Source: a virus
Length of the DNA stretch: 64,000 bases
Strand: one strand, 5' to 3'
IMG/VR virus record: IMGVR_UViG_3300009709_000003
Coordinates: 32,001-96,000 of that record
Every line of letters starts with the position of its first letter. The first letter of the stretch is position 1. The notes below the pieces were generated by a model. That model worked only from the letters and a program-made list of their open reading frames with translations. It did not search any database and was not told the origin of the DNA. Position numbers and translations under genes: made by a program. This document shows, piece after piece, positions 1-33,190 of the stretch.

Positions 1-2870
1 AGTGCTAGGGTACCACCTGTAAAGCCAGTGATACCGTTTGGGTTAGCAGAACTACCTACTAATCCTAGATGGTTTGCATCAATGCCGCCAAAAGCTAGCA
101 CACCGCTATCAAAATTAGCTGGGTCTGTACCAATACGAGCCGGCACCATCAAAGCGTATTCGGTTTCTCCAAACACTCCACTTTCTACATATTGCGAGAT
201 CGCAACGGCGTCTGGGTCACCAGAAACACCCAAATAAAGGGTGTTGCCGTTTGAAACTACAGCAGAGGTAGAAAAACTACCTGTAATGGTCAACATCCCA
301 CTTACATTAACGTTAGTGAAATTGCCGTTAGTCACAGATAACTGACCAGTTACGATTAAATTTTGGTTAACCGCAACGTTGCCAGAAAAATTGGCATTCG
401 CGGCATTTGTGAGTCCAGTAACCACCAAACCTGGGAAAGCAGTTGCGTTCAGCGTGGCGGGGATGTCGTTGGCCACCAAAGTACGGAAAGAAGGTGTGCC
501 AGAAGTGCCAGAAGCAGGGCCAAACAAACCAGTGTTCGCAGGTTGTGCAGGAATAGATAAGTCAGTAAAAGCAATTTGTTGAAAAGTTGGTGCGCCACCA
601 CTGGTTTGCGCAAGATACATTGGTGTAGCAGTGGAATTCACAACTGTCTGCGAAATAGACGACATACTATTGGCGTAGAACACACCTTCTGCAGTAAAAC
701 TAGTTAGACCCGTACCGCCTTGAGTAGTTGGCACGGTACCAGTGATTTGTGTAAAAGGCAATGACGGAATGTCGCTTGAAACCAGAGTACGATAGGAGGG
801 TGTGCCTGGCCCAGTGGACGGACCGGCAAACACGGTATTTTGTGCGGCATTTGATAAAGTGAACGCCAGAGTACCAGATGAAGTGATAGGCGAGCCTGAC
901 ACGGTCAAAAGCGATGATGGTACGGTAGCGGCAACAGAAGTAACAGTTCCAGAGACGGCTGGATTCGCATAAACAAGCGTGCCGCCCATATAAGTCAGAA
1001 CTTGGCCAGAAGTTGCACCAGTGGTAGAAATTTGCGATAGTGGAATCTGACCAGTCAAGAGAGTGACTGGTACTGAGCCAGAAGCCAACGTTCCAACACC
1101 AGTGATACCAGCATAAGAGCCACTTAGACGACTACTAGGGAGTGTCCCACTAGAGATATTGGATGCATTTGTGGTGTCTGTGGTTGCACTAGGTGCCAAC
1201 CCAGTAACCAGAGAGTTTGGTATGGACCCGGACACAAGCGTACCGACACCCGTAATACCGGCATACGTTCCTGTGACCAACGTCGAGGCAATAGTACCAG
1301 ATGTAATATTGCTTGCATTTGTTGTGTCAATCGTAGCGCTAGGTGCCAACCCAGTGATCTTAGAATATGAGAGATTTGGGATGTCTGTTGAAGTAAGAAT
1401 GCGGTACGTAGGCGCACCTGAACCACCAGTTGCAGGACCTGCAAACACAGTGTTCTGGGCAGCGTTAGCTAGAGTAAACACCAATGTACCAGAAGAGGTG
1501 ATCGGTGATCCAGAAATAGTGAGCAGTGTGGATGGCACAGAGGCAGCCACAGAAGTCACTGTACCATTAGTAGCGGGTGAAGCATACGTCAATGCACCAC
1601 CAGTGTATGTCAATATTTGACCATTTGTTGCACCAGTGGTCGAAATTTGCGTGAGAGGCAAAGAACCAGTCAACAATGACGTTGGAATTGATCCAGATAC
1701 AAGAGTGCCAACACCCGTAATACCAGCATATGTACCATTCAGTCTTCCACTTGGGAGTACACCAGACGTAATATTGCTCGCGTTTGTGGTGTCTGTGGTT
1801 GCGCTAGGTGCCAACCCTGTAACTAATGAAGATGGCACCGAACCGGATACAAGAGTGCCAACACCCGTAATACCAGCATACGTTCCATTTATTTGGTTTG
1901 ATGCAAGAGTGCCGGACGTAATATTGTTTGCATTGGTTGTGTCAATAACTGCACTTGGTGCCAAACCAGTGATTTTGGTGTAAGGTAACGACGGAATGTC
2001 CGTCGGAGTAAGTGCACGCAAAGATGCGCTGCCTGATGTTCCGTTCGGAGTAGCAAAAACTTGATTAGCTGTACCACTTGGTGGAGTAAAAGCCGCAGCT
2101 GGAGCCCAAGTGGTCCCATTCCAAGAAATAACCTGACCTGTAGTGGCGCTAGTTTGGTTAAGTTGAGACAGGTTTAACGACCCACGCAAATTTTGCAATG
2201 AATCGATATACATGCCTAAGATAACATTGCCATTCCAAACACCAGTTGTGACGGTTCCGATGTTCGTGCCACCAGTGTTGTTGAGAGTTACAGCACCGGA
2301 ATTGGGATCCATCGTCAAAAATGTTTGCCCGCTATTTACCTCTCCAATGTTTAGCATCCCAATAGAGGGGCCAGATGTAGAGATAGATATGGAATAATTA
2401 CGCGCTGTTCCAGTTTGTGCAGCAGTTGATACTAAGTGATAACTACCTGGACCAACATACACAGAAGCCCACCGAGCTGTACTCGTGCCCAAAGTGTAAG
2501 TATTGTCTACTGTTGGAGTGATATTTCCATTTGATTGAATCGAGCCGACAATCAGCACACCGCTTATATTGCCGTTGCCATTAACAGTGAGAGTGCTAGT
2601 GGGCGAAGACGTTCCTATGCCCAACATCTTGTTGACGTTGTCCCAATACAAACTAGCGTCACCAGAAAGTGCAGTTGCTGATGTCCAAAAAGTAACTTGA
2701 CCAGGTGCTCCGGTACCAGTTACGCCACTGTTAGGGTTGTTTGGATTAGTTCCGCCACCAGAAGAATCCTCGATAGGATCAAGAAGAGTTTGATTATTAG
2801 CCGTACCAGCATAAGAGATGCTAGATACAAAGAGGCTGCAAACTACGAATGGTAGAATTAAGGATTTCAT
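1..2870 (-). CDS. Tail-fibre-like repeat protein with N-terminal signal peptide; partial (>956 aa, runs off the left edge)
   Basis: Not in the ORF track (no stop in window). ATG at 2870 overlaps the upstream TGA (ATGA). Translates MKSLILPFVVCSLFVSSISYA-GT...YWDNVNKMLGIGTSSPTSTLTVNG...TYTLGTSTARWASVYV. G/T/S-rich with internal repeats (LAPSATTDTTNASNITSG, GTYAGITGVGTL, GTVTSVAATVPS..SGSPITSSGTL). Same frame reads sensibly at position 1. Confidence 0.8.
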   Translation of the reverse strand, partial: MKSLILPFVVCSLFVSSISYAGTANNQTLLDPIEDSSGGGTNPNNPNSGVTGTGAPGQVTFWTSATALSGDASLYWDNVNKMLGIGTSSPTSTLTVNGNGNISGVLIVGSIQSNGNITPTVDNTYTLGTSTARWASVYVGPGSYHLVSTAAQTGTARNYSISISTSGPSIGMLNIGEVNSGQTFLTMDPNSGAVTLNNTGGTNIGTVTTGVWNGNVILGMYIDSLQNLRGSLNLSQLNQTSATTGQVISWNGTTWAPAAAFTPPSGTANQVFATPNGTSGSASLRALTPTDIPSLPYTKITGLAPSAVIDTTNANNITSGTLASNQINGTYAGITGVGTLVSGSVPSSLVTGLAPSATTDTTNASNITSGVLPSGRLNGTYAGITGVGTLVSGSIPTSLLTGSLPLTQISTTGATNGQILTYTGGALTYASPATNGTVTSVAASVPSTLLTISGSPITSSGTLVFTLANAAQNTVFAGPATGGSGAPTYRILTSTDIPNLSYSKITGLAPSATIDTTNASNITSGTIASTLVTGTYAGITGVGTLVSGSIPNSLVTGLAPSATTDTTNASNISSGTLPSSRLSGSYAGITGVGTLASGSVPVTLLTGQIPLSQISTTGATSGQVLTYMGGTLVYANPAVSGTVTSVAATVPSSLLTVSGSPITSSGTLAFTLSNAAQNTVFAGPSTGPGTPSYRTLVSSDIPSLPFTQITGTVPTTQGGTGLTSFTAEGVFYANSMSSISQTVVNSTATPMYLAQTSGGAPTFQQIAFTDLSIPAQPANTGLFGPASGTSGTPSFRTLVANDIPATLNATAFPGLVVTGLTNAANANFSGNVAVNQNLIVTGQLSVTNGNFTNVNVSGMLTITGSFSTSAVVSNGNTLYLGVSGDPDAVAISQYVESGVFGETEYALMVPARIGTDPANFDSGVLAFGGIDANHLGLVGSSANPNGITGFTGGTLA

Positions 2871-3334
2871 TGTGATTGGACCTGAACCATAGCTAATAGA
2901 GTAATAGTATCACCAGAAGAAGCACCTGGGGCAGACGCCGTACACTGGAATGCTTTATAATTCATACCAAGGTTTACTATGAAACTGGTGTTGCCGGATA
3001 CTGATTTGGTGTAAGTGTAGTCGCTTAGAGTTCCTACGCCGGAAGACAGCGCAATTGATTGAACTTTACCAAAAGTGACTCCATCCAAAGATCCGGAACA
3101 CGACAAATTCACGTTGGTAGCAGACGAGTGGAAATAAATAACCTGTAGAGTAAGTTTGGTGTACCCATCAGTAAGAAGGGGATTAGTGGTAAGCGAATTT
3201 GCGTTTCCGTTAAGAGGAGCGTTTTGTATGCCAGTAGGCAATAGTTGTTGATATGCGGCACCCCATGCGATAGATGGGGATAAGCACGCTACACAAAATA
3301 ATATGCGTAATACGGTATGCTTAAATGAAGTCAT
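2867..3334 (-). CDS. Small beta-rich virion/secreted protein with signal peptide
   Basis: 155 aa; N-terminus MTSFKHTVLRILFCVACLSPSIAWGA; translationally coupled to the fibre gene. Confidence 0.65.
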   Translation of the reverse strand: MTSFKHTVLRILFCVACLSPSIAWGAAYQQLLPTGIQNAPLNGNANSLTTNPLLTDGYTKLTLQVIYFHSSATNVNLSCSGSLDGVTFGKVQSIALSSGVGTLSDYTYTKSVSGNTSFIVNLGMNYKAFQCTASAPGASSGDTITLLAMVQVQSQ

Positions 3335-3391
3335 ACCGGTTATTAGATGAAGGGAGGGTATTAGTATTCTATTCTATTATTTAGGTTATGC

Positions 3392-4306
3392 TTAAGCTTC
3401 AACGGTTTCAGTTGCTTCTTGAGCATCGACCAAGTCTTGGATCTTCTTCTTAGCTAGAGTCTTTGCAGACTTATAGTAACCTTGAGCACGCACACATTCC
3501 CAATCTTCGATCGCCATGTCTGGGATGTCTTCAAGTTCTTGAATCAACTGCATGGCCGGCATACGCTGCTCTTCAGGAAGTTCAGGGTTAACTTGTGCCA
3601 TCAAATGAAGCACGCGACCCTTAATGATCTCATCCATGGAAACTTCTTCTCCACGAACTCGATTACGTTCCCCAAAACGGGCTTCACCATTGGGACCCGA
3701 ACCATCAGACTCGACCACCCCTGGCAGGGGCTTTGGAACAGTAGAGGTAGTGAACGCGCCTTTATTGCTCAAGCGAGCACGTTGGTCTTCTGCAACCGAA
3801 ATAGCGGCATCAATATTGGGCTTACCGTCAGGAGTAGACAAACCTTTAGACACAGCCTTTTTCGTGAAATAGGCTACATACTCCTCGTCGTCCAACAACT
3901 GGAGAACCGGAGGACGACGAGCAAGCAACTTACGCAAGTCCATAGAACGCTTAATCACGTCAAATGGAAAATACTGAGTAAGATTGATCGGATCCCGCAT
4001 GTTAGGAAGCAAAAAAGGTTCGTGCATACCCTGCTCGATAGGGAACGACAGGGAAATTTGTGCTGAAGACAAGTTCTGAATGTAAACATTACGTTCAGTC
4101 TTAAAATACTCTGTGTGATTCAAAATAGCCATTGTTTTTTTCCTTTGTGGATTTTCTATAATATACGTCAACCGAATCGTAAACGGGTCTTTGGAATGGA
4201 TAGTTGCCTTATTCTCTTTTAAGAGTTTACGTGCTGCACTAGAATTCGTTCTTTCAAGGAACGTTCCCGCTGCATCCATTACAAGTACGTCTGAATTCTT
4301 AGACAT
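3392..4306 (-). CDS. Late phage protein with N-terminal IscB/RRXRR PLMP-like domain; probable internal start at 4132
   Basis: First ~48 aa VLVMDAAGTFLERTNSSAARKLLKENKATIHSKDPFTIRL match the PLMP-domain pattern; AAAGGA RBS precedes internal MAILNHTEY. Confidence 0.65.
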   Translation of the reverse strand: MSKNSDVLVMDAAGTFLERTNSSAARKLLKENKATIHSKDPFTIRLTYIIENPQRKKTMAILNHTEYFKTERNVYIQNLSSAQISLSFPIEQGMHEPFLLPNMRDPINLTQYFPFDVIKRSMDLRKLLARRPPVLQLLDDEEYVAYFTKKAVSKGLSTPDGKPNIDAAISVAEDQRARLSNKGAFTTSTVPKPLPGVVESDGSGPNGEARFGERNRVRGEEVSMDEIIKGRVLHLMAQVNPELPEEQRMPAMQLIQELEDIPDMAIEDWECVRAQGYYKSAKTLAKKKIQDLVDAQEATETVEA

Positions 4307-4430
4307 CTACTACAGATAGCCACTGTTTAGACCATGAAGGTCTGGGAGTTTCACCCTGACATACTTTAAGTGTTACCTCAAAGTAGTGTATTGTAGCACT
4401 TTCGTGCTCTCCCTAGCGAAATGCTAGGGG
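4307..4430 (-). ncRNA. Candidate structured RNA leader (five consecutive hairpins including a T-loop)
   Basis: On the minus strand: CCCUAGC/GCUAGGG, AGCAC-GAAA-GUGCU, UACUUUGAG/CUUAAAGUA, GGG-UGAAA-CU-CCC and AGACC/GGUCU fill the intergenic gap. Confidence 0.5.
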
Positions 4431-4988
4431 TTATGGGCTAGTGTTGGGGGCGGTGTTGCGAGTAATATTCGCGTAGATAGTATCAATATCAGTAGCTAGA
4501 TGGCTGGTATATGCGATGCCGTGCTTCTCCATAAAGATCTGGAGAAGAGCGGATTTCTCATCGGAATCTTTAGTATCTGAATAGCGACCACGCTGGTCTA
4601 CTTCTGATACACGATGAATGAAATAATTGTGGTAAGTAACACCATACAGTTGTTGAACAATGCGCATATACTGCATAGGAAGGTCTTTGACCAATTGAAA
4701 ACTTTCTGGATTATACACTTGCTCATAAAAAGAACAGAGATAAATAGGACAGTCTGTAATAATAAAATCTACTTTCCCAAACAGAATACTCTCTTTGTGG
4801 CTCTGTTTGCCAAAGAAATAGATCTCATCAAGTGGTCCAGGCATAATGCCGCGATAAGCCCAAGACTTAACATATTCGTTCACAAGTTCTGCAGAGAACC
4901 CATTACTCTTAAGTTTGTGGAAAAGTCCGGCTGCAAGCGTGGATTTACCGGCACCAGCGGCACCAGCAAGATTGATAACAGTAGTCAT
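4431..4988 (-). CDS. P-loop kinase/NTPase (NadR/Ttd14 AAA-like)
   Basis: VINLAGAAGAGKST Walker A; ELVNEYVK; IITDCP; QRGR lid. Confidence 0.75.
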   Translation of the reverse strand: MTTVINLAGAAGAGKSTLAAGLFHKLKSNGFSAELVNEYVKSWAYRGIMPGPLDEIYFFGKQSHKESILFGKVDFIITDCPIYLCSFYEQVYNPESFQLVKDLPMQYMRIVQQLYGVTYHNYFIHRVSEVDQRGRYSDTKDSDEKSALLQIFMEKHGIAYTSHLATDIDTIYANITRNTAPNTSP

Positions 4989-5224
4989 TAATAATCCTTT
5001 TGTTTGTAAATTTCTTTATACTTCTGATCGAACAATTGCATTTGTAGGAGGTGTTTGGTCTGGAGCAGCTCGTGAATGGCAAACGCTACCCCTGGCAGGT
5101 GTGAAGCCGGGGTTAGGTCATGAATGGCTTTAGAAGTCACCGCAAGGGCCTTTTCGAGCATAACTGTGGAGTATCTATGGGTCTCTCTTTTCAAACCGGT
5201 CTTTATGTCGTAAATCTTAGCCAC
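4988..5224 (-). CDS. Hypothetical protein
   Basis: 78 aa, coupled to both neighbours. Confidence 0.55.
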   Translation of the reverse strand: MAKIYDIKTGLKRETHRYSTVMLEKALAVTSKAIHDLTPASHLPGVAFAIHELLQTKHLLQMQLFDQKYKEIYKQKDY

Positions 5225-6299
5225 GCATCACCATACGAGCTAAATCCATGGATGTAGGACGAGACAACGCGATTCCCATACCGTTGCAACACATCCCGAC
5301 ATAGACATTGGTTCGATGAGGCACTTTTTCAACTACGGGTCTACTATTCGGCGTAAATGCCATAATCCCCGACCACCCATAGTCAATTTCAATCTGTTCT
5401 TGTGTAATGTCAGACAATACAGAAAGTAAGTAATCCTTAATTTTATCTGTATTTTCAAATTCTAGAGTGTTCTCGGTGGAAAAACTCTGATTCCGACCAC
5501 CACCAATCAACACCCGATTCCCTATCACCGGTCTAAAATACACGTACCCTTTATCATAATGGGTAGGACAATACACTGGGTTCTGTTTCTTTAAAGGTTT
5601 TGTTACATAAACTTGACCACGCCCAGGCGTGATATTGCCATATTCAGGTAGCAGTTTGCTAGTAAAAGCGTTCGTACAAACAACCAGGTTATTGTATTCT
5701 AAGCGACGACCGTCTTTGAGTTCGACATTCCAGTCATGAATAGCTTTTACTTCTCCATCCAAGAAAGTGACGCTATTTAATTTACACGTTTTATGAAGGT
5801 GCTGTAGAACTTTCACAGGGTCTATCATGTGCTCAAATCGATTTTTGATATACTGGTACTTAAGGTTAAGACCTTTTGGAGCCGTAACGACAGTGTAGTA
5901 TCTCTCCATGTCGCGAGACTCAAGCTCCTTTGCATAATTCACACCACCAGGATCTGCACGTACAACTTCTAGACCTTCACGACAAGAAGGTATAATGCAG
6001 TACTTATCGTACTTATTATATTCATCGTAGAACAACCGAATTCCATCTAGTCGATTGGTAAGAATTTCTCTTGCCTTGCGTTTACCAAGAACTTTTTCGG
6101 TAGCAAGATATTCCTCAAAAGACCCGTAAGTAAGGAACCCAGCGTTGTTTGTAGACGCGCCCTTTAGGCCGTTATCAATCAAAAGTACACACTTACCATT
6201 AACCGCCAATTCCAGCGCGGTCATGCTACCAAGTAGCCCGGCACCGACAACAATGACGTCGTAGGCGTCTCGCTTCATTTGCCAATGTGATGTGTTCAT
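5217..6299 (-). CDS. FAD-dependent oxidoreductase (D-amino-acid oxidase/glycine oxidase/PuuB-like)
   Basis: DVIVVGAGLLG dinucleotide fold, GASTNNAG, PGRGQV, WSGIMAFTPN, CNGMGIAL. Confidence 0.85.
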   Translation of the reverse strand: MNTSHWQMKRDAYDVIVVGAGLLGSMTALELAVNGKCVLLIDNGLKGASTNNAGFLTYGSFEEYLATEKVLGKRKAREILTNRLDGIRLFYDEYNKYDKYCIIPSCREGLEVVRADPGGVNYAKELESRDMERYYTVVTAPKGLNLKYQYIKNRFEHMIDPVKVLQHLHKTCKLNSVTFLDGEVKAIHDWNVELKDGRRLEYNNLVVCTNAFTSKLLPEYGNITPGRGQVYVTKPLKKQNPVYCPTHYDKGYVYFRPVIGNRVLIGGGRNQSFSTENTLEFENTDKIKDYLLSVLSDITQEQIEIDYGWSGIMAFTPNSRPVVEKVPHRTNVYVGMCCNGMGIALSRPTSMDLARMVMRG

Positions 6300-6300
6300 G

Positions 6301-6684
6301 TTAGTTTACCAAAGAATCGTCTACCTTGGTGTCTTCTTCATCGATGAGAAATTTGAACGTGACGGCTTCTGTAGCGAAAATCTTATCGTCCGGAATATGT
6401 TCCGCATCAAGAGCGTCGATAATCTTTACGTCGCCGTTAGCGTCCTCGACCAAGCAAACATAGTATTGGTCGTAGCCGTATTCAATACCGTCGTTAATTG
6501 TGTCGAGCATTTTATGTGCGATTTCCTCAAGCACACATGGCTCTTCATGTTGGTGATCGGCGTGTTCTTCTAGAACACGAACGGCCCAATTCTCAACAGC
6601 TGCCACTTTCTGTTGGGCTTCGTCGCGTTCAGCAAGAATGTCTTCGATGTCTGCGTCTGTGTAGTGCTTGTATTTTTCCAGCAT
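6301..6684 (-). CDS. Hypothetical acidic protein
   Basis: 127 aa in operon. Confidence 0.55.
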   Translation of the reverse strand: MLEKYKHYTDADIEDILAERDEAQQKVAAVENWAVRVLEEHADHQHEEPCVLEEIAHKMLDTINDGIEYGYDQYYVCLVEDANGDVKIIDALDAEHIPDDKIFATEAVTFKFLIDEEDTKVDDSLVN

Positions 6685-6714
6685 GCAGCGATATAAGGCA
6701 GGACGACAAACAGA

Positions 6715-6990
6715 TTATCTATTTGAAACGGTTTCCACATTTAACAGCTTGAAGTTAAAGGATCCAGACTTAGCAAATATTTTCAACATATCTAACTCAG
6801 CCGCAGCCGCGCTTACCGCTTCTATGTCATGGTATGATTTATGCCACATTTGATCAGTTATTTCTAACTCTTCGTCGTTTGTGTCATAAAAAGTTATTCC
6901 GCCAGAAAGGTTGCTGGTGGGTACGTATTCATGATTTTCTGGTAGAATCAGCTCCAGGAAGAATACTCTATACTTGAACAATTTCTTCAT
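6715..6990 (-). CDS. Hypothetical protein
   Basis: 91 aa in operon. Confidence 0.5.
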   Translation of the reverse strand: MKKLFKYRVFFLELILPENHEYVPTSNLSGGITFYDTNDEELEITDQMWHKSYHDIEAVSAAAAELDMLKIFAKSGSFNFKLLNVETVSNR

Positions 6991-7020
6991 ATATTATGTA
7001 TAGTTTATTTTACCACCAAA

Positions 7021-7788
7021 TTATATAATAGACCAAATGTATTCAAGAGGCAATTTGTCGCCCTTACTGGAGTTACATTTCGAGCATGCGGGGACTATAT
7101 TGGAAATGGCGTGGGACGAGTTTGAACCATAAAGGATAGGGACTAGATGCTCCTTAGTACGCTTGGTGGGACCTTTACTATTAGTTAGTTCAACATCACA
7201 AAAAGCACAACGATTCTTGAACTCTTCTACACGTGCTGCCCATTCTGCTTTGGTGTGCTTACCAGGGACATTGGCCTTACGGGCGCGACGTACACCCACA
7301 GAGGCCAAGACGGTTGCTTTACGCGCGGGGTCCGTGTTGTATTTTAGTCGATTCTGTTCCTTGCGCAATTCCTTGCCTTCTACACTAAGATTGGCATAAT
7401 AGTTTGCGTTACGTGCCTTAATTTTTTCTTTATTTTCGGGCGTGTTAGCGTTTTGTCTCTTCTTCAAGCGCACTGTGGGTGTATAAACTTCATAGCAACG
7501 CTTACATACGCCAAACGCCGCGTGCTTGTGCTCACTCCAACACCACCAACATTTGATAATTTTACGCTTATGACCATTTGCCTTAACACGAACAGCCCTT
7601 TTTAATTTCTGTTCTGGCGATGAGATATAACACTTATGACACACATCCTTACCAGCTGGTCGTCCTGATCTGCCGCATTTTATACACTGCACTTGCCGTG
7701 ACTTATCGTAACACAATTTACAGAGGCCAAATGCTTCATGTCGCTTTGACTTACCACACATGGAGCATGTAATAATACGTTTAGACAT
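7021..7788 (-). CDS. HNH endonuclease with N-terminal Cys/His zinc-finger repeats (homing-type)
   Basis: CAFC...EHLVP...H..SNIVPACSKCNSSKG; three CxxC...CxxCY repeats. Confidence 0.85.
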   Translation of the reverse strand: MSKRIITCSMCGKSKRHEAFGLCKLCYDKSRQVQCIKCGRSGRPAGKDVCHKCYISSPEQKLKRAVRVKANGHKRKIIKCWWCWSEHKHAAFGVCKRCYEVYTPTVRLKKRQNANTPENKEKIKARNANYYANLSVEGKELRKEQNRLKYNTDPARKATVLASVGVRRARKANVPGKHTKAEWAARVEEFKNRCAFCDVELTNSKGPTKRTKEHLVPILYGSNSSHAISNIVPACSKCNSSKGDKLPLEYIWSII

Positions 7789-7837
7789 TTCAATATTATA
7801 ACACGGTTTAATTTAAGATTAATATGCAGGATACAGA

Positions 7838-7859
7838 TGAGGGGGCTTGCGCCCCCTCA
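7838..7859 (-). terminator. Hairpin downstream of the capsid gene (probable terminator)
   Basis: TGAGGGGGC-GCAA-GCCCCCTCA 9-bp stem about 30 nt after the MCP stop; weak U-tract. Confidence 0.55.
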
Positions 7860-7887
7860 AAAGTTATCAATATTACTTAAGAATTCT

Positions 7888-9102
7888 TTACTTCATAGCT
7901 TTGGAGACTGCACGAGGATTCGCAATACCGAATCCGAGAAGTTCCATAAAGGCCCATCCCTTAGTAGTCCTTCTTTGGTTAAAGTTGTTGAAGGGTTCCG
8001 AGAACAATTCAACACGCACGCCCATTTCGCCCAAGTACTCCGAAGCAGTCGAAGCGTAGACGCTACCAGCGGGAACAACTTCTTCAACACCCGTACCTGC
8101 AGCAGTGATAATCTGCGCATTCAAGATGTTGCCGATGTAACCAGCCAAGATCAACTCGCGCTCCGTCACAGGGTCAACCGAAGCCGCCATCGTGGTCACG
8201 ATGTCCGACAACTCGGCACGGTTGATGAGGAATTTTTCCACCATCAATCGATGACGCTCAACCTGATAGCGAGTAGCTTCAAACGCTGCCACGTTCAAGG
8301 TCGCAAACATCGTCAAGGAGTTAACCGTGGTGGCCGCGCGATCAAGCAACGCCAAACCACGCTTGTCCTCTTCGAGTTCGATTTCCTGACGAGCTGTATC
8401 TTGTGCACGATCCAAGACGTCGTAGTTCATCTGATAGATTTCCTCGATGTCCACCGTGGGGAACGAGGTAATCTTGAACTCCGAGGGCTGAATGTACTTA
8501 CCGTACAAACGGCTCTCAATCGACTGACCGTCTTGACCGATCACCCAAGCGCTCGAACGAACGTCCTTGGCGATACGGAACAATTCACCTTGGCCAAGGG
8601 GACGAACGCGGTACACCTTACGTGCCCAACCTTCGTAATCCACAATGTCCTTGATGGGGAGCAGCAGTTCTTGACCGACAATGGCAAAGCCTTCACCCGT
8701 AGGATCAGACAAAGCCGCAGCCAAAACCTTCTTGCGCTCTTCGGAAGCCATCGAAGTCGATGCCTGACGATAGAACGAAGCGCCCGACTTCTTGGTAACC
8801 GTCTGCAACAGATACGCAATCTGCTTCAGAGCGTCGCCTTTGTCATAAGCGTTGAGTTCACCACCCTTGTCGAACATACGATTGTTCAGGTTGGTGCTAC
8901 CAACGGCTTGACGAATGCCACTACGGGTTTCCTCACCAGCATATGCGGTGGGGTTGAAATCACCAGCGCCGTCGTACACAGTCTCTTCGTGTGCGGCGGT
9001 GAGGTTCTTCTTTTGACGTGCTGCCATCCGGCTCTGACCCGCGTTCGCAGGCGCTGCCCCGGACCCAGCTTGCTTGCGGTACGGATTAATCTGATTAGCC
9101 AT
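7888..9102 (-). CDS. Major capsid protein (HK97-fold) with N-terminal propeptide
   Basis: 404 aa, strong codon bias, GGAG RBS, downstream of protease and decoration genes; PIKDIVDYEGWARK, YDVLDRAQDTARQEIELEED, GWAFMELLGFGIANPRAV. Confidence 0.85.
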   Translation of the reverse strand: MANQINPYRKQAGSGAAPANAGQSRMAARQKKNLTAAHEETVYDGAGDFNPTAYAGEETRSGIRQAVGSTNLNNRMFDKGGELNAYDKGDALKQIAYLLQTVTKKSGASFYRQASTSMASEERKKVLAAALSDPTGEGFAIVGQELLLPIKDIVDYEGWARKVYRVRPLGQGELFRIAKDVRSSAWVIGQDGQSIESRLYGKYIQPSEFKITSFPTVDIEEIYQMNYDVLDRAQDTARQEIELEEDKRGLALLDRAATTVNSLTMFATLNVAAFEATRYQVERHRLMVEKFLINRAELSDIVTTMAASVDPVTERELILAGYIGNILNAQIITAAGTGVEEVVPAGSVYASTASEYLGEMGVRVELFSEPFNNFNQRRTTKGWAFMELLGFGIANPRAVSKAMK

Positions 9103-9175
9103 AATTCTCTTCTCCTAAAACAAAAAGTTTGACAATTAGTTAAGGACGGGAGCCATCTCCCGATCCGGGTTAAAA

Positions 9176-9961
9176 TCAGGTGATCGGGGTGGGGTCACGG
9201 ACCAAACGCACGCCAAGGAACGGATCGTTCGCAGACGGCAGTTGAATCACATGGCCAACAAACTTACCTTCAGCGGCGTTGTTCGTAAACAAACCAGCCA
9301 AGGCGGGAGTGGCACCACCACAATACAAGTTCTTGCCAACGCCAGTCAGCGAATACGTACGCGACGTATCGTAGCAGGACGTGAACAACACGGAAGCTTC
9401 CGTGATGACCGTAACGCGGCTATTAGCAATAGTCACGTCATCCGTCATGTTCCAGAAGTTACGACCTTCGAAATCAAGATCGCTGGTCTGGAGTTGGAAG
9501 GTATAAGTGGCATACACCGTGGTGGCGAGGGGGATCGCACCAGTCGACACCTGAGTAACCGTACCGTTAGGCAACGAAGCCGTGTAGTCGGTGGTCATCG
9601 CGTAAGTCGTGCCCGTCTCACCAGGAGCAGAGCGAATCACAAGATTGCTGGCTGCGGGGTGTTTCAGGTTAACAGTCGAGTTGGCCGTCGCAAACGCGAT
9701 AGGCTCGTCAACCGACACAGACGTGAAAACGTTGGTTTTGTTCCACTTAGCAACACCGAGAACGCCTTCGCTCGTTGCAGGAACGATGAAACCGTTGGCG
9801 TCCTGAGCAACCAACGAGCCTTGCTCGAAACTTGCCGTCGTGTTAGCAACGTAAAAACCGAGATCTTCCTGAATCACGCAACGACCAAGATCCAAGCCAC
9901 GCTTGAATACGGTGCCATTGAATGCAGCAAGTCCGGCGCTTGAAAGTCCAATACTGCCCAT
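9176..9961 (-). CDS. Capsid decoration/cement protein
   Basis: Beta-rich 261 aa between scaffold and MCP; LGVAKW, VGHVIQLPSANDPFLGV. Confidence 0.65.
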   Translation of the reverse strand: MGSIGLSSAGLAAFNGTVFKRGLDLGRCVIQEDLGFYVANTTASFEQGSLVAQDANGFIVPATSEGVLGVAKWNKTNVFTSVSVDEPIAFATANSTVNLKHPAASNLVIRSAPGETGTTYAMTTDYTASLPNGTVTQVSTGAIPLATTVYATYTFQLQTSDLDFEGRNFWNMTDDVTIANSRVTVITEASVLFTSCYDTSRTYSLTGVGKNLYCGGATPALAGLFTNNAAEGKFVGHVIQLPSANDPFLGVRLVRDPTPIT

Positions 9962-10108
9962 AGCATATACTCCTAAAAGTTGAATAAAATTATGGGCAAT
10001 CTTAGCCCATCGTAAGCTTCAATAGTCTAGTAAGGGTGTTATATTCGCGGAAATATTTAAGACGGAGAGGGAAGTAATAATATTCTATTCTAGCGTATCA
10101 AAATCAGA

Positions 10109-12754
10109 TTAGAATTTGAAGTTTTTGGTGTTCTGGGCCAGATTGCCCACTTTCATACCACCAATTGCTTCACGAATCGAAGCCGCGCGAGTGTCGCGTG
10201 GGGTATCGTCGCTGTTATCGACAGGAGCCACAGTCATATTTCCTGCACGCGCTGCTTGACGAACACTTTCATCATGGGTGGGCTCTGGTTGATACTCAAT
10301 GACCACCGAAGCAGTGCGAATGTTGTTCATGTCAGACTCCACTTGCATGAGAGCTTCATCCGACATTTGCATCACAGACGCCGCACGCTCGAACAAACCG
10401 TCGATAAAAGCCTCCCAAGTAGGCTTGGACGATGCAACTTTCTCGCCAAATGCCGTCTCAATCAGACTGACCGCAGTATGCTGATCCATGGGAACGTATT
10501 CATAGCCTTGACCAAGATCGCGTCCATTGGCCAACACAATGCCAAAAGCTTCCTTCAATGGGGAATGCTCAATATTCATTGCTTGACGACGAGCCACGAA
10601 CTTCAAGGCACGCACCAAGCGATTTTGCAACATATCCATTTCTGCTTTATGCTGAGTCTTCAAGGCAGTTGCTTGTTCAGCCAAACGCGTGTCATAAAGT
10701 TTCGTCAAACGAGCGATATGCTTTTCATGTTCAACTGCGGCGACTTTACCTTGATGGTCGTGGGCCTCTCCGTCCAGCACGCTCTCACTGAGGTCGAAAT
10801 CCTTGCGCTTCTCACGCGTATCGAAATCTCGATCCTTTGTAACATTGAGAGCATGAGGGTCTTTGTCATGCTTCTCATCTTCGACGTCAACCTCACGACC
10901 TTCCAAAGCGTCATCCTTAAGGTCTTTCTCCTCATGGTGCTCTTCGGTGTCCGTATGTTCGCCGCTTTCGGTAGCTGATTCCAACACTTCGCCATCCTGG
11001 CGATCGTCGGTCATGGTCTCATCGCGTTCTTCGTGCGTACTGTTGGTTTCTTGGCGATCCGCATCAAGCATGTCATCGACAGCTTTGTCGAGAACTTGAG
11101 CCAAGTGCAAGCTGGGGACAGCCTTAAACTTTTGCATGGTGGTCGTCAAACCATTGGTTTGGATAGACGCCAAGATGTCATCATTGGTAGTGGCCGATTT
11201 CGACGTGGGATCGACAGGCATTACAAACAGCGTACCAGTTGAATCTGACACGGCGAGATTACCACTTTTGGTGGTCGAAATGGTAAGTTCTTTGTACACT
11301 GAAGCACCTTTAAATTTAGATGATACGATTCGTTTTTTAGTGGTAGTCTTGACATCGTTAGAAAGTGCAGATCCGCCACGTTTAGGTGGAGCATTCACAC
11401 TTTCAGTCGGCTTATTGGTTACTATACCCATCGCGGCAGGGGTGAGTTGTTCACCTTCCTCAGCAGGGGTCAAACCGACATCAGAGGGACTAAGATCTTC
11501 AATAGAAGTACCTTGTTCATCCTCGATTGGATCAGTGGACTTAATATCCACACCGTCGGTGCCGTCACCGATGTTAACAATAACATCAGCTTCTTTATGA
11601 CCGCCCGTCTCTTTGGCAGCAGGAGTGAGTTCCGCGCACCCTTCACAACGAGTGTAGGTGTCACCATCACACATGGGATCAGCGTCTTCCCAACGAGCCA
11701 TCCTACCTTCTGCACATTCTGGACAGAGAATAGGCTTGTCTTGGACCTGAGCAGCTTTGCTCATACTCTTTTCTAGGGCCGCAACTTTTGATTTCAAGAT
11801 AAGTAATTCGCTTTCTTGTGCCAAAGTGTTATTTGAGGCTTCTTTAACAGAAGCAGACAATTTGAGAATCTCATATTGCTCAGCCTTTGGATCGGCTGGG
11901 TCTTGTACGCGCGAATACTCTTCGAATACGACACCTTCACACCATTCAAAAGCTTCAGCTTCTTTCATAGATGAAGCTGTTCGACCATTGGCGTCGTCAA
12001 TGTTTACATACTTAATAGTATATGCAACTGGATTAAAGTCTTCCGCACCTTCGGCGTAAACTTTACCCTTATTCCGAATATGCTTACAAAATTCAGATGC
12101 AGTTGATGCAACATGGTTGCAAACGTTACAACGTGTGCGAGCGCAAGAGCATCCCATCGAACCGTGGCGCAACACACCAGACATGACGCCGTTGGCAAAA
12201 ACTGGGTCTTTCTTAGTGTCAATAGCGACCAGCAATTCTACAAATTCGTCTTTTACGACATGACCACACTTTATGCAGTGCAAACCAGTTTCGGCGTCTC
12301 TAGCCTCTTTAGCTGCAGTTTTAGCGTGACAATTCTCACATTCTGCGGAAGCTGGCGAACGATCATTATACGTGGCATCGAGAATAAAACCGCGTGCAGT
12401 CTTTGGATTATCTGCACGATGTTGAATTTGATGCGGTTTGTACTGATAAGTGCGATAAACTTGTTTACCTAAGCGGTGGTCAAATCGCAACAATTCAGTC
12501 TTATGGAAGGCGTCTTTGTTCTCATTACGAACGTTAGACGTATTACCTCTAATAGCCTCAAAGATGTAGTCTTTTGGATCGGCAGAGATATTGTATTCGT
12601 TAGCTACCAGGTCAAGGGCCGCTTGCACATCGATCTTTTGAGTGCCTTCAAAATAAGCACTTTTACCATTGTAAGCTGCGGACTTTTTAAAATCTTTGCC
12701 ATCAGAGGTGGCAACAGATAACACTTGCACGCCGGCCTGTCTAAAGAATGCCAT
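10109..12754 (-). CDS. Prohead maturation protease fused to acidic coiled-coil scaffold
   Basis: N.N.DAF...EL, H....ARGFILDA, SMGC...CNVC...FCKH, FEEYS.V.DPADP.A; acidic C-terminal half. Likely start MAFFRQAG at 12754 (AGGA RBS), not 12838. Confidence 0.75.
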   Translation of the reverse strand: MAFFRQAGVQVLSVATSDGKDFKKSAAYNGKSAYFEGTQKIDVQAALDLVANEYNISADPKDYIFEAIRGNTSNVRNENKDAFHKTELLRFDHRLGKQVYRTYQYKPHQIQHRADNPKTARGFILDATYNDRSPASAECENCHAKTAAKEARDAETGLHCIKCGHVVKDEFVELLVAIDTKKDPVFANGVMSGVLRHGSMGCSCARTRCNVCNHVASTASEFCKHIRNKGKVYAEGAEDFNPVAYTIKYVNIDDANGRTASSMKEAEAFEWCEGVVFEEYSRVQDPADPKAEQYEILKLSASVKEASNNTLAQESELLILKSKVAALEKSMSKAAQVQDKPILCPECAEGRMARWEDADPMCDGDTYTRCEGCAELTPAAKETGGHKEADVIVNIGDGTDGVDIKSTDPIEDEQGTSIEDLSPSDVGLTPAEEGEQLTPAAMGIVTNKPTESVNAPPKRGGSALSNDVKTTTKKRIVSSKFKGASVYKELTISTTKSGNLAVSDSTGTLFVMPVDPTSKSATTNDDILASIQTNGLTTTMQKFKAVPSLHLAQVLDKAVDDMLDADRQETNSTHEERDETMTDDRQDGEVLESATESGEHTDTEEHHEEKDLKDDALEGREVDVEDEKHDKDPHALNVTKDRDFDTREKRKDFDLSESVLDGEAHDHQGKVAAVEHEKHIARLTKLYDTRLAEQATALKTQHKAEMDMLQNRLVRALKFVARRQAMNIEHSPLKEAFGIVLANGRDLGQGYEYVPMDQHTAVSLIETAFGEKVASSKPTWEAFIDGLFERAASVMQMSDEALMQVESDMNNIRTASVVIEYQPEPTHDESVRQAARAGNMTVAPVDNSDDTPRDTRAASIREAIGGMKVGNLAQNTKNFKF

Positions 12755-12755
12755 G

Positions 12756-12872
12756 TTATTTGTCCTGCTTAGATTTGTTCTTGTCAGTGTCTGGCTTGGA
12801 TTCGGTCGTGGTCGTAGGCACCGAAGTGGCAGTATCAATTGTCGTCGTTTTGCCGTTCTTTTGGAATGCCAT
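12756..12872 (-). CDS. 38-aa peptide MAFQKNGKTTTIDTATSVPTTTTESKPDTDKNKSKQDK
   Basis: Below ORF-track cutoff; AGGT RBS; stop 1 nt before the protease ATG; N-terminus resembles the protease N-terminus (MAFFRQAG). Confidence 0.5.
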   Translation of the reverse strand: MAFQKNGKTTTIDTATSVPTTTTESKPDTDKNKSKQDK

Positions 12873-12944: not shown

Positions 12945-15308
12945 TTACTTATCGTCCAGGAGATCGGAAATATCACCAACCCATCTACTGTCGCCACCAT
13001 TACCATGGCCCACTAAAAGATCAACACTCTCGTGCGTTTTAAATACTTGCTTACCTTTATTCATTACCCTTGCGTTCATGTCTTCATCGCCATAAACACC
13101 GGCATCCTCTGGCATATCTTCTAATAAAGATCGATTTACTTGAGATTTGCCAATACTGATATCCTTAAGGACACCCTCAGCGTCTAGGATACGACGCAAT
13201 GAGGTGAAATCAGCGTGTGGATAGCCTTTATCAGCCAAAAACGTTTCTACACAGTCTAAAGTAGACCAAGTGTCACAATCTTCAATAGCACTCACCAAGT
13301 TGGGAGATTTAAGTTCTTCCCATATTGGAGATTTCGTTTCGCCGCTTTCGAGTAGATTCATCAGTTCATGTACTTCACTGGCACGCCAATTCTTATACTG
13401 ACCATTTTTATCCCAAAGGTCGCTTTTCATGTGTCGAACATATTCATCACGAGTACCACTAGGGCCGTGTTCCTCAGAAGTTTTGTCGGCTGCTGGACCA
13501 GGCGCTCCACCTGGATTTCCTGCCGCACCACCAGCTTCACCTTCTTCAGCTGGTTTACCCTCTTCACTTTCGCCACCGTCTGTAGGTGTAGGACTTGGAG
13601 CACTCATGCCACCACCCGTCGCACCAGGACCACCGTCAATTGCAGAAGCTGGCAAATACTGTTGCAAGCTTTGTTCATATTTTGTTTCTTCGATAATTTT
13701 CTTGGTTTCTTCTTCGAAGTGCTTACCAGCCGCTGCAAACTTGGTGGTTTTAGAGAACTTCAATCCAAGTTGACCTTCGAGAATGTTCATCACATTCACA
13801 AGTTCCGTGTTAACCGTAGAATCTAGCTGTTTTTCCCATTGGATACCCGGAATGATCCATCGATTTTCTTGCTCAATTTCTCTTGCACTACGTTTAACTC
13901 GATAACGACCAGCTAATTCCTTTTTGCTAGGTTTGATCCACCCATTCATCTGGGCCATGGGCTTAAATATTTTCGGAATCAACCACCCATTAACAAAGAA
14001 ATTACGCATTGACTTCATGCGCTGCATGAAGACCGACAAGCCGGTGATAGACGATGCATAATTCGTGTCGCCAGTCAAGAAACCTTTATTAATACCCATG
14101 GCAACAAGCTTGTACTGCTCAATGGTATTAATATGACCGGTAATGTTCATAACTCGTTCTTGCACACCCACCAGTTCAGTTTGAACGCCGTAATGAGTCA
14201 CAATCCAAGCCATAGGATCGACTTCAGCCTGAGCAAGCATTTCAAGCATCTTGCGTTCGTGTTCTGGACCAGGAATCCAACCAGTGGTGGGATTACCCAT
14301 CTTCAACAATTTCAATGGTGCGGCCATACGGCGAGCTGTCTGTAGACTTGCCTCGAAAACCGCATCCTCAAACATCAAAACACGCCACATACGCGAAATA
14401 ATGCTAGTTCCGCGCGTGTCGTATGGGTGCATCTTTCGTGGAATAAAGGTGAAATTAATCGGACTAAGAGGAATGTTCTGGCGGGCCACTAATTTGGCAA
14501 TAAGTTCAGGAGGCATTTGCTCACGAACTTTTCCCAACAAACGGTTGTTAGACGTCAACACTGCTCGTAAACGGTCGTCCGGAATAAATTCAACTACAGG
14601 CTCCATTTTAATGAATGGAGTGCTGATAACTTCAAGTTGGTCTGGGTTGTGCAGAGAAACGTGTGTCCACATACCACGATTTTCATCCCAGAATGCATGA
14701 GGACAAGCCTCCCCCACACCTAGGAACTCTTTAACCATCGATTCAAGTGTAGAGATCACATTGATCTCTTTTAACATTACTTCATAATGTTCTTTAACTT
14801 CACCAGTTACACCTTCACCAGTCAATTGAAAATCAGACCATGGCATGGAACCGTACATGTCAATACAAGTTCCGATGTAAGGATCCAATTTTGTGAACAA
14901 ACGCCAGTAACGATTTGCCAAAATCCGATGTACAGGGTACTGTTGGCGGTCACTCGATCCGAATTCGGGTTGGTATGGTTTCTGGGGGCTAACCATCGAA
15001 CCCCCCATACCCCCATACCCTCCAGCCGGACCGCCATGACCACCCCACCCAGCTGAACCATGTTGTTGTGATGTCTTACCGAACCCCCTGGAATCCCAGC
15101 TAGCTCCCTCTGGGAGTATGTTTGACATGAGGTTCTGAACGGCACCATGCTTGTTAGCTAAACCAGGTAGGAACTTTTCAAACCGCTCGTTTAGGGCTTC
15201 GATCGTTGAGTGAGTTAGACCACTAGGATTAGCATTGTCAGATACAGTCTCTGCCATTGCTTGCTTGCGGACATCACCATACTTGTTGCCTGGTTTGATA
15301 TAGCTCAT
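12945..15308 (-). CDS. Portal protein
   Basis: DPYIGTCIDMYGSMPWS, EFLGVGE, HNPDQLEV, RGTSIISR, NYASS; upstream of protease; low-complexity C-terminal tail. Confidence 0.8.
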   Translation of the reverse strand: MSYIKPGNKYGDVRKQAMAETVSDNANPSGLTHSTIEALNERFEKFLPGLANKHGAVQNLMSNILPEGASWDSRGFGKTSQQHGSAGWGGHGGPAGGYGGMGGSMVSPQKPYQPEFGSSDRQQYPVHRILANRYWRLFTKLDPYIGTCIDMYGSMPWSDFQLTGEGVTGEVKEHYEVMLKEINVISTLESMVKEFLGVGEACPHAFWDENRGMWTHVSLHNPDQLEVISTPFIKMEPVVEFIPDDRLRAVLTSNNRLLGKVREQMPPELIAKLVARQNIPLSPINFTFIPRKMHPYDTRGTSIISRMWRVLMFEDAVFEASLQTARRMAAPLKLLKMGNPTTGWIPGPEHERKMLEMLAQAEVDPMAWIVTHYGVQTELVGVQERVMNITGHINTIEQYKLVAMGINKGFLTGDTNYASSITGLSVFMQRMKSMRNFFVNGWLIPKIFKPMAQMNGWIKPSKKELAGRYRVKRSAREIEQENRWIIPGIQWEKQLDSTVNTELVNVMNILEGQLGLKFSKTTKFAAAGKHFEEETKKIIEETKYEQSLQQYLPASAIDGGPGATGGGMSAPSPTPTDGGESEEGKPAEEGEAGGAAGNPGGAPGPAADKTSEEHGPSGTRDEYVRHMKSDLWDKNGQYKNWRASEVHELMNLLESGETKSPIWEELKSPNLVSAIEDCDTWSTLDCVETFLADKGYPHADFTSLRRILDAEGVLKDISIGKSQVNRSLLEDMPEDAGVYGDEDMNARVMNKGKQVFKTHESVDLLVGHGNGGDSRWVGDISDLLDDK

Positions 15309-31938: not shown

Positions 31939-33190
31939 TTTTACGAATGTCCTCTAATTTGGTGTTCCAAATTACATTCTGCCCATTTTTCAAATTAACC
32001 CACATGGACCCATCTCCATTAATTTTCGAAATGGCACCTGCCACCATGCCGGCACGGTCTTTATTCTTGGGTGTAGACTGGAAAAGTGTCTGATTAAAAA
32101 CCTTATCCCCCACCTTAGCAGACGCTTCCGCTTTACCATTTTCAGTCCTTATAATCACAGAGTCATGACTGAAAGTGGACGGATCAGGTTCCGGTTCGTC
32201 TTTAATGCGATTTTTATCAGAAAGAGGCTCGCTATAGGTATTTTCTTCACGTTTCAGAGCATGTTCCGCCGCATCGTCAACTTGTTTCTGTTCGTATGGT
32301 TTTAACTTAAAAGGCTCGTTGCCCATCCCAGTACCAGATTCCAGGAATTCGGCCATAGTTTCATCAGTGGCATTGTTAACCCATTTACGCAACACAAGTA
32401 GATCGTTCAAAGTGTTGTCGTCTGCGTCGTTTTTAGTGGCCGCTTCTAGTTCTTGTTCTACAGACTCTAAAGCAACCTCTTTGGCATTATCAGGGCTAGC
32501 GTTATTATCTCGCATTCTGTCATGAAGATCAGCGAGTAGATCACGCATCGTTAAAGTTTTTTTTTGACCTTGGATTTTAGCCCCACCGTTGCCGCCATAC
32601 CCAGCGAAATCATTCTCCAACTTCATGGCTTCAGAAGACATGCTCATAATGTCTTTGGCTACTTCTGGGTCAAGACCTGGCTGTTTGGCCAAGGTCTCTA
32701 GTTGTTTACGAGTCTCTGACATCATCTTTTGTTTTTGGTCAGGCGGTAGATTTCCACTCATTTGAGCCATTGACTGAGAAAACAAAGTAGATGCTCGACC
32801 CAATACGGCATTTTGCATTGGATTATCATTACGTCCAAGCCGAATGATCTTACGAGTGTTAGCTACAATTTGGGGATGCAATTTAACATTTGTCTCTAAA
32901 ACTTCTTGTGCCGGGCTATTCAATCCCGCAGTGTAGGCTTGATAGGCAACTCCTACCAATTCGGACCATGATTCCATCGGAAATTTGCTAGATTCCGCAG
33001 TCAACACATTACTGGCTACAGTTAAAGGAACAGAATCAACAAGGATCGTGGCAGACTTACCATTATCCGACAAAGCAGTTGCGAGTGTGCCGGCTTTGAT
33101 TTTAAATGCACGTTTAAGACGTTTTCCGTCTCCAACGTTGGTTGTGGTGTCGTGCGCTACGACTACTTTGTCACCAAATACGTATGTCAT
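31928..33190 (-). CDS. Putative head-associated protein
   Basis: 420 aa, first gene of the head block. Confidence 0.55.
   Translation of the reverse strand: MTYVFGDKVVVAHDTTTNVGDGKRLKRAFKIKAGTLATALSDNGKSATILVDSVPLTVASNVLTAESSKFPMESWSELVGVAYQAYTAGLNSPAQEVLETNVKLHPQIVANTRKIIRLGRNDNPMQNAVLGRASTLFSQSMAQMSGNLPPDQKQKMMSETRKQLETLAKQPGLDPEVAKDIMSMSSEAMKLENDFAGYGGNGGAKIQGQKKTLTMRDLLADLHDRMRDNNASPDNAKEVALESVEQELEAATKNDADDNTLNDLLVLRKWVNNATDETMAEFLESGTGMGNEPFKLKPYEQKQVDDAAEHALKREENTYSEPLSDKNRIKDEPEPDPSTFSHDSVIIRTENGKAEASAKVGDKVFNQTLFQSTPKNKDRAGMVAGAISKINGDGSMWVNLKNGQNVIWNTKLEDIRKSAF

Follow-up and report, generated by a model that had tools for sequence, protein, structure and literature searches.

The locus and its surroundings

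The 64,000-nucleotide stretch of viral DNA analysed here (the window; positions 32,001 to 96,000 of IMG/VR record IMGVR_UViG_3300009709_000003) belongs to a complete phage genome of 160,708 bp with direct terminal repeats. Its minus strand carries a head module with genes for the portal (12945-15308), a protease-scaffold protein (10109-12838), an Ig-like protein (9176-9961) and the major capsid protein (MCP, 7888-9102). Between the MCP gene and the leader described below lies a 3.4-kb block (4431-7887, minus strand) that is found in the window phage only and that contains genes for an HNH endonuclease (7021-7788), a FAD-oxidoreductase-like protein (5217-6299) and a P-loop thymidylate-kinase-like protein (4431-4988), together with three small ORFs. 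This block looks like a homing-endonuclease-associated insertion. The thymidylate-kinase-like gene adjoins a 124-nt gap (4307-4430, minus strand) that holds a structured 5′ leader RNA, composed of five hairpins (P1-P5) and a start region. The gene behind this leader (3392-4306, minus strand) is a single uninterrupted frame of 304 aa, encoding an N-terminal PLMP domain of the IscB/IsrB type (aa 5-55; 4142-4294), a linker and a C-domain of 246 aa (3395-4132). It is followed on the same strand by a gene for a 155-aa signal-peptide protein and then by one for a very long fibre-like protein.

The motif TAGAATAGAATA(C/T)TA(A/T)TAC...CCCT occurs on the minus strand at 3335-3391 and 9962-10108, before the genes for the signal-peptide and Ig-like proteins, respectively, and is a candidate late promoter. 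It is missing from the leader of the PLMP gene, which is therefore probably read from an upstream transcript. A sigma-70 promoter or a terminator consisting of a GC hairpin with a U-tract was likewise sought in the leader, and neither is present on the minus strand. After the capsid gene, a GC-rich hairpin (GAGGGGGCGCAAGCCCCCTC, 7830-7860, minus strand) is found that has no clear U-tract, and comparable long hairpins lie 3′ of the capsid stop codon in relatives. Contigs identical to the window were found in a moss metatranscriptome, and within positions 2000-9300 they cover only 4029-4406, in the region of leader and PLMP domain, and the MCP gene. These RNA-library contigs have a depth of 2-4 and indicate presence rather than strand, ends or level, while the uncovered parts are uninformative.

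The PLMP domain

The first ~48 codons of the gene had been described as IscB-like in a first-pass annotation made from the letters of the DNA alone, and both profile and fold comparisons bear this out. Residues 7-56 match the Pfam family RRXRR (PF14239) with an E-value of 5.1e-8 and 33.4 bits, above the curated cut-off of 25 bits, and the match is confined to positions 1-50 of the 174 profile positions, which correspond to the PLMP part. An AlphaFold model of the 304-aa protein, built with 37 homologues (pLDDT 83.9), shows an N-terminus folded into a small domain of sheet and helix. In a VIA superposition, the modelled residues 5-55 align with the PLMP domain of 9k30_A over 51 aa with a Z-score of 8.4, an rmsd of 1.3 Å and 41% identity, and the IscB/IsrB entries 9k2z, 9nvu, 8dmb and 9liq follow with Z-scores of 6.9-8.1. 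The top PDB matches retrieved by Foldseek for the complete model are also IscB proteins. Both the basic helix AARKLLKENKA and the strand PFTIRL are retained. The N-terminal domain is thus a member of the PLMP family, a small, IF3 N-terminal-domain-like RNA-binding domain. The tetrapeptide PLMP itself is absent from the 304-aa protein, which has TFLE instead; FLEY or VLSY is found in relatives, and the tetrapeptide is near-canonical at two related loci, L015 and L066 (KPVSP or RICAP).

The remainder of an OMEGA nuclease does not follow, as the first-pass annotation had also noted. The Pfam match does not extend past profile position 50, no RNase H-like fold is matched, and the RuvC-I, RuvC-II and RuvC-III motifs and the arginine-rich bridge helix are all lacking. 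Furthermore, no HNH family in Pfam matches within the 304-aa protein, and the 246 aa after the PLMP domain have no Pfam match and nothing RuvC- or HNH-like beyond residue 56. Since these nuclease features were tested for and are absent, the protein does not belong to IscB, IsrB or IshB. A nuclease partner in trans does not exist either, because an RRXRR search of the whole 160.7-kb genome returns one match only, the PLMP gene itself (33.6 bits). The PLMP codons are under purifying selection, with dN/dS values of 0.04-0.27 over 11 pairs of relatives that are similar to those of the C-domain, which identifies the N-terminal extension as a protein under selection and not a relic.

The C-domain and its place in the head module

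The C-domain is predicted to consist of an alpha/beta subdomain (aa 59-182), a disordered linker of acidic character and a bundle of helices. The alpha/beta subdomain is modelled with a pLDDT of 88.8, and neither this subdomain (compared as aa 59-184) nor the whole model has a convincing fold match in the PDB (best Z-score 3.9); the helical bundle gives generic PDB matches only. When the ESM Atlas was searched by feature and by shape with the C-domain, only unnamed viral clusters were retrieved. In BFVD, the look-alikes are uncharacterised proteins of ~210 aa from PaBG-type jumbo phages, a group whose capsid protein is related to that of the window phage. A search for these jumbo-phage look-alikes (PaBG, Y3) beside their capsid genes with hhalign and hmmsearch gave no sequence match. 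In most relatives of the window phage, the C-domain gene directly follows the major capsid gene, and this synteny points to the C-domain being a head-associated protein.

Two starts in one reading frame

The first ATG (Met1, 4304-4306, minus strand) is not preceded by a usable Shine-Dalgarno sequence, the predicted duplex with the anti-Shine-Dalgarno sequence amounting to -1.5 kcal/mol. A second, in-frame ATG (Met59, 4130-4132) marks the start of a putative short isoform and lies 8 nt behind the sequence AAAGGA (4141-4146, core AAGGA at 4141-4145), which is embedded in the linker codons. The claim that the C-domain has a ribosome-binding site and an ATG of its own at 4132 thus holds, and it extends to the relatives. 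A methionine is found 3-12 residues ahead of the conserved xFTEYF motif in all of them, and at every locus examined the internal ATG is preceded, within the linker codons, by a Shine-Dalgarno sequence of the AGGAG, AGGAGA, AAGGAG or GGGAGG type. The internal Shine-Dalgarno sequence pairs more strongly than that of the first start in 24 of 29 loci, with means of -7.9 and -5.5 kcal/mol, respectively. Because both the internal Shine-Dalgarno sequence and the internal ATG are conserved, two isoforms of roughly 34 and 28 kDa are likely to be made from this gene. Indirect evidence for both products comes from the purifying selection on the N-terminal extension. Judging from the two initiation sites, the long isoform would be the minor form and the short one the more abundant. 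A run of seven A residues (4135-4141, minus strand) lies between the internal Shine-Dalgarno sequence and the ATG at 4132 and is not conserved in relatives; the gene is readable without a frameshift.

Structure and conservation of the leader RNA

The first-pass annotation had described the 124-nt gap as filled by five hairpins and had proposed a covariation analysis of homologous leaders, and the outcome of both is positive. Folding of the leader predicts five hairpins with a minimum free energy of -49 kcal/mol and a z-score of -5.1, and none of 200 shuffled sequences was as stable. P1 (4411-4429, AAC-CCCUAGC...GCUAGGG-AG) and P2 (4395-4408, with a GAAA loop) are followed by the long hairpin P3 (4359-4389), by P4 (4344-4356, GGG-N7-CCC) and by P5 (4329-4343), all on the minus strand. 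An RNAalifold consensus was derived from 16 sequences, the window and 15 relatives. In these 16 leaders, 92.4% of cells are paired; column shuffles reach 75.6%, and sliding the partners lowers the value to 40-47%. Compensatory changes on both sides occur in 29 of the 35 pairs, whereas controls with slid partners give 9-12. The covariation score of 0.59 contrasts with about 0.1, and 0 of 500 shuffles reached a value as high. Both-side changes affect 10 of 11 pairs of consensus helices 3 and 4 (P3) and all seven pairs of consensus helix 6 (P5), while P4 is near-invariant across the family. The 124-nt leader is a real, conserved and covarying structured RNA.

In relatives, the leader is about 200 nt long and contains additional elements. 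A small hairpin that shows covariation, P6, contains the AUG in its loop, and a GAGG box precedes the AUG by 13 nt. In L001-L008 and L029-L038, a further hairpin of 10-16 bp is present (P0, for example at L001:3800-3850), and pairing is possible between its conserved loop, UUCCACC, and a GGUGG located immediately 5′ of P4. This candidate pseudoknot can pair in all cells and is accompanied by one compensatory event (CAACC/GGUUG in L035). The window leader is without P0, GGUGG and the GAGG box, so that both pseudoknot partners are missing.

Other identities and contacts suggested for the leader fared less well. A T-loop had been proposed, and ARAGORN finds no tRNA-like element; the loop of P5 measures 5 nt and is not conserved. 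The long-range pairs CUACA/UGUAG and CACU/AGUG, which were thought to close a multiway junction, are likewise unconfirmed and not conserved. The sole closing helix predicted joins 4435-4440 with 4317-4323 and is specific to the window phage, and a conserved closing helix is not found across relatives, in which the expected number of pairs ranges from 0.1 to 6.2. Kinship with omega-RNA is not supported: Rfam 15, with its HEARO/omega-RNA models included, yields no match at an E-value of up to 10 across 3300-5200, and no family at an E-value of up to 1 in seven related loci. Omega-RNAs themselves are diverse, and the leader may still be a distant descendant. The leader is a new RNA motif.

Fused and split forms among relatives

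The analysis comprised 37 homologues as well as 28 IMG/VR loci and 33 metagenome loci. The PLMP codons are open and in frame with the C-domain in 28 of 28 IMG/VR loci, down to about 30% identity, so that the fusion of a PLMP domain to an unrelated protein of ~246 aa, first noticed in the window, is general among them. Many of the 'short' proteins in databases are alternative gene calls on the same DNA, as gene callers often report the Met59 form alone. A true PLMP-less homologue is L065, in which the C-domain gene is preceded by a plain AT-rich gap of 84 nt with a strong Shine-Dalgarno sequence. In three members of an AT-rich clade (L048, L051 and L067, in the latter at 258-452), the PLMP domain is encoded by a separate ORF of 64-72 aa, and in L067 its stop codon adjoins the ATG of the C-domain gene (TAAATG). 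This split arrangement implies that covalent linkage to the C-protein is not essential.

A profile of the phage PLMP domains matched 1242 cluster representatives at an E-value of up to 0.001. The best 150 of these comprise 43 PLMP-C fusions and 69 proteins of at most 100 aa, 66 of which begin with Met, and 37 of the remaining 38 are ordinary RRXRR/IscB-like proteins. The fused, free and adjacent arrangements show that PLMP and C-protein form one module, either fused or split, and phages of 160-210 kb have the PLMP domain fused to or located beside the head-module protein in dozens of lineages. In a separate Chloroflexota cluster of the ESM Atlas, the tRNA-modifying epoxyqueuosine reductase QueH is combined with RRXRR in 86% of the members, again without a nuclease.

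The split forms raise the question of whether PLMP and leader act on the downstream cistron, i.e., on synthesis of the C-protein through coupling or remodelling of the mRNA, in which case the fusion would be incidental. The TAA stop next to the ATG of the C-gene and the abundance of proteins of at most 100 aa among the best 150 matches are in line with this reading. However, a strong Shine-Dalgarno sequence is present before the internal start throughout, which means that the C-protein does not need coupling, and this explanation is considered rather improbable.

A TnpB-like transposase gene (phrog_506, E-value 4.8e-86) is found at 6501-7709 of L012, 1.7 kb downstream of the PLMP-fusion gene, and OMEGA-type elements thus occur in this phage group. 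Their presence would also allow the PLMP codons to be the decaying remains of an IscB/IsrB insertion, without function and open into the following gene by chance. This is contradicted by the purifying selection on the PLMP codons, by the conservation of the frame to about 30% identity and by the covariation of the leader, and hardly any credence is given to it.

Association of the leader with PLMP genes

Three clades have parts of the leader in front of their PLMP genes, and no further occurrence of these parts is found in the genome of the window phage. In clade B, in which the gene directly follows that of the MCP, P1 and P2 alone are retained, with compensatory change in three of the four P2 pairs, and are followed by a Shine-Dalgarno sequence and the start codon. 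In L066, which represents a third lineage, the P4-P5 core is found before the PLMP gene. The leader is kept with the PLMP gene whatever lies upstream, which is the MCP gene at seven loci and other genes in L002, L005 and the window. Genome searches with the leader model R1 gave a single copy, at the window locus (64.8 bits), and model R2 also gave a single copy together with a 13-bit match inside a coding ORF that was read as noise, while a loose P1-P2 descriptor detected nothing alike elsewhere in the genome. In the AT-rich PLMP-bearing clades (L041, L043, L048, L052, L067), on the other hand, the leaders are no more structured than shuffled sequences (z about 0), from which it follows that the PLMP domain does not strictly require the leader for its function.

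This distribution bears on the question of whether leader and PLMP domain belong together at all. The two could be independent, the leader acting in cis on the stability or processing of the mRNA or on initiation of an unusual kind, for example by a hairpin that moves a remote Shine-Dalgarno sequence close to the AUG, as known from T4 gene 38, and the PLMP domain having its target elsewhere, for instance another phage or host RNA, tRNA, the ribosome (given the resemblance to IF3-N), DNA or a protein partner. Several PLMP clades manage without a structured leader, the QueH-PLMP fusion in Chloroflexota characterises the domain as a portable module, and the PLMP domain of IscB/IsrB also packs on protein domains (PMC9581776). 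In addition, the GAGG box of the relatives lies 13 nt from the AUG, a distance that P6 could shorten. Against independence, leader elements stand only before PLMP genes in the three clades, and the PLMP-less L065 has just its plain gap and strong Shine-Dalgarno sequence. Independent action is regarded as possible, though on the unlikely side.

Alternatively, the leader may be part of an assembly or structural RNA-protein complex, in which the stable leader RNA is tethered to the head or to the assembly machinery by the long isoform or by free PLMP acting jointly with the C-protein, either like the pRNA of phi29 or as a packaged RNA. The position of the gene in the head module, just after the MCP gene, fits such a role, as do the length of about 200 nt and the candidate pseudoknot of the relatives' leader. 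A weak hint is that, in the RNA library, the region of leader and PLMP is covered about as deeply as the capsid gene, although such contigs reveal neither the strand nor the ends of a transcript. The PLMP clades without a leader, the split forms that part PLMP from C-protein and the putative nature of the C-domain's virion location all speak against such a complex, which is judged improbable. The first-pass annotation had listed the loading of an RNA onto a virion protein among its proposals, and the free PLMP mini-protein of some relatives argues against this as the main job.

A model for the function of leader and PLMP domain

The model preferred here, which is put forward tentatively, resembles the situation in IsrB: the hairpins of the leader would be contacted by the PLMP domain close to the start codon from which this domain is translated, and the long isoform would thereby be limited. 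In IsrB, the PLMP domain binds the tandem terminal omega-RNA hairpins SL7 and SL8 and also touches the Shine-Dalgarno sequence of isrB (PMC9581776), and in IscB it binds terminal omega-RNA hairpins, mainly without sequence specificity (PMC9640706). A module composed of an RNA and an RNA-binding domain is therefore a reasonable model for the phage locus as well. According to this model, one frame of a late head-module gene would give two proteins. The short form, initiated at Met59 behind a good ribosome-binding site, would be the ancestral head-region protein, and the long form, initiated at Met1, would equal the short form plus the nuclease-free N-terminal PLMP domain. Met1, which is without a proper ribosome-binding site, is positioned at the 3′ end of the conserved, folded leader of about 125 nt. 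The leader hairpins next to Met1 would be bound by the long isoform, or by the separate PLMP protein where the ORFs are split, and bound PLMP would throttle initiation at Met1 while initiation at Met59 continues, so that the module would hold the long form low and at a fixed level relative to the short form. The binding of PLMP to the leader and its regulatory effect are both inferred by analogy with the OMEGA proteins.

Several observations count against autoregulation of this kind. The PLMP tetrapeptide, which touches RuvC and RNA in IscB, is replaced here, the AT-rich clades are without a structured leader, PLMP ORFs can be split, the leader has no detectable likeness to HEARO or other Rfam families and the window leader lacks P0 and the GAGG box. 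The earlier proposal of a domesticated RNA plus RNA-binding-domain module accordingly stands in part: the PLMP domain, the covarying leader that stays with the gene and the internal start agree with it, whereas a descent of the RNA from omega-RNA is not supported. In its boldest form, leader and PLMP would be a nuclease-free survivor of an OMEGA RNA-protein complex and a new RNA-protein device in the head-assembly module, serving either as a stoichiometry switch for a minor head protein or as a pRNA-like structural or assembly RNA held by PLMP, and this version is thought unlikely.

In the literature searched, PLMP is described solely as belonging to the nucleases IscB, IsrB and IshB, and nuclease-free PLMP proteins in phages are not described. 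The locus demonstrates that the PLMP domain is usable on its own, often together with a strongly covarying RNA motif that is new to Rfam. If PLMP binds the leader, a protein of about 55 aa and an RNA of about 50-125 nt would constitute a natural and compact pair with potential as a tool, and parts of a transposon RNA-protein complex would have been recycled for the control of phage genes or for assembly. Given the likeness to the IF3 N-terminal domain, such binding would also be evidence on the role of PLMP before or beside RNA-guided cleavage.

Comparison with known systems

Nested in-frame phage genes with internal initiation include T7 gene 4A/4B, lambda C/Nu3 and phiX174 A/A*. In the gene described here, too, a single frame contains both an upstream start and an internal one equipped with a Shine-Dalgarno sequence, and the long form adds an N-terminal nucleic-acid-binding module, as T7 4A does with a zinc finger. 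Here, however, the isoforms are predicted, and the extra module is an exapted transposon domain behind a dedicated structured leader. Autogenous translational repressors are represented by gp32, gp43 and RegA of phage T4 and by the ribosomal-protein operons of L1, S8 and S15. The logic proposed for the PLMP gene is the same, with an RNA-binding protein acting on a structured operator at its own initiation site, but in the present case binding is inferred, and repression would hit one of two starts in the same frame.

IscB and IsrB (PDB 9k30, 8dmb, 7utn, 7xht; PMC9581776, PMC9640706) contain the same domain according to both the HMM and the predicted fold. The PLMP domain occupies the same position at the extreme N-terminus, and its helix (ARKLLKxxKA) and strand (PFTIxL) are kept in the phage protein. 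In both systems, a structured RNA lies directly 5′ of the ORF and reaches into the ribosome-binding region. The phage protein differs by being without RuvC, bridge helix, HNH and TI domain, and by having TFLE (FLEY in relatives) in place of the PLMP tetrapeptide. Furthermore, the phage RNA is 125-200 nt in size and has neither a guide segment nor a detectable likeness to HEARO or other Rfam families. A transposon context is not apparent from the neighbours, which are the thymidylate-kinase-like gene and the gene for the signal-peptide protein, and the partner of the PLMP domain is a phage head-module protein.

The recruitment of parts of a transposon-encoded RNA-guided nuclease to a role outside transposition, with phages among the hosts, is also known from TldR, a nuclease-dead protein derived from TnpB (bioRxiv 10.1101/2023.11.30.569447). 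TldR keeps the whole protein and the guide RNA and targets DNA (bioRxiv 10.1101/2023.11.30.569447), whereas in the phages described here the PLMP domain of 50 aa alone survives.
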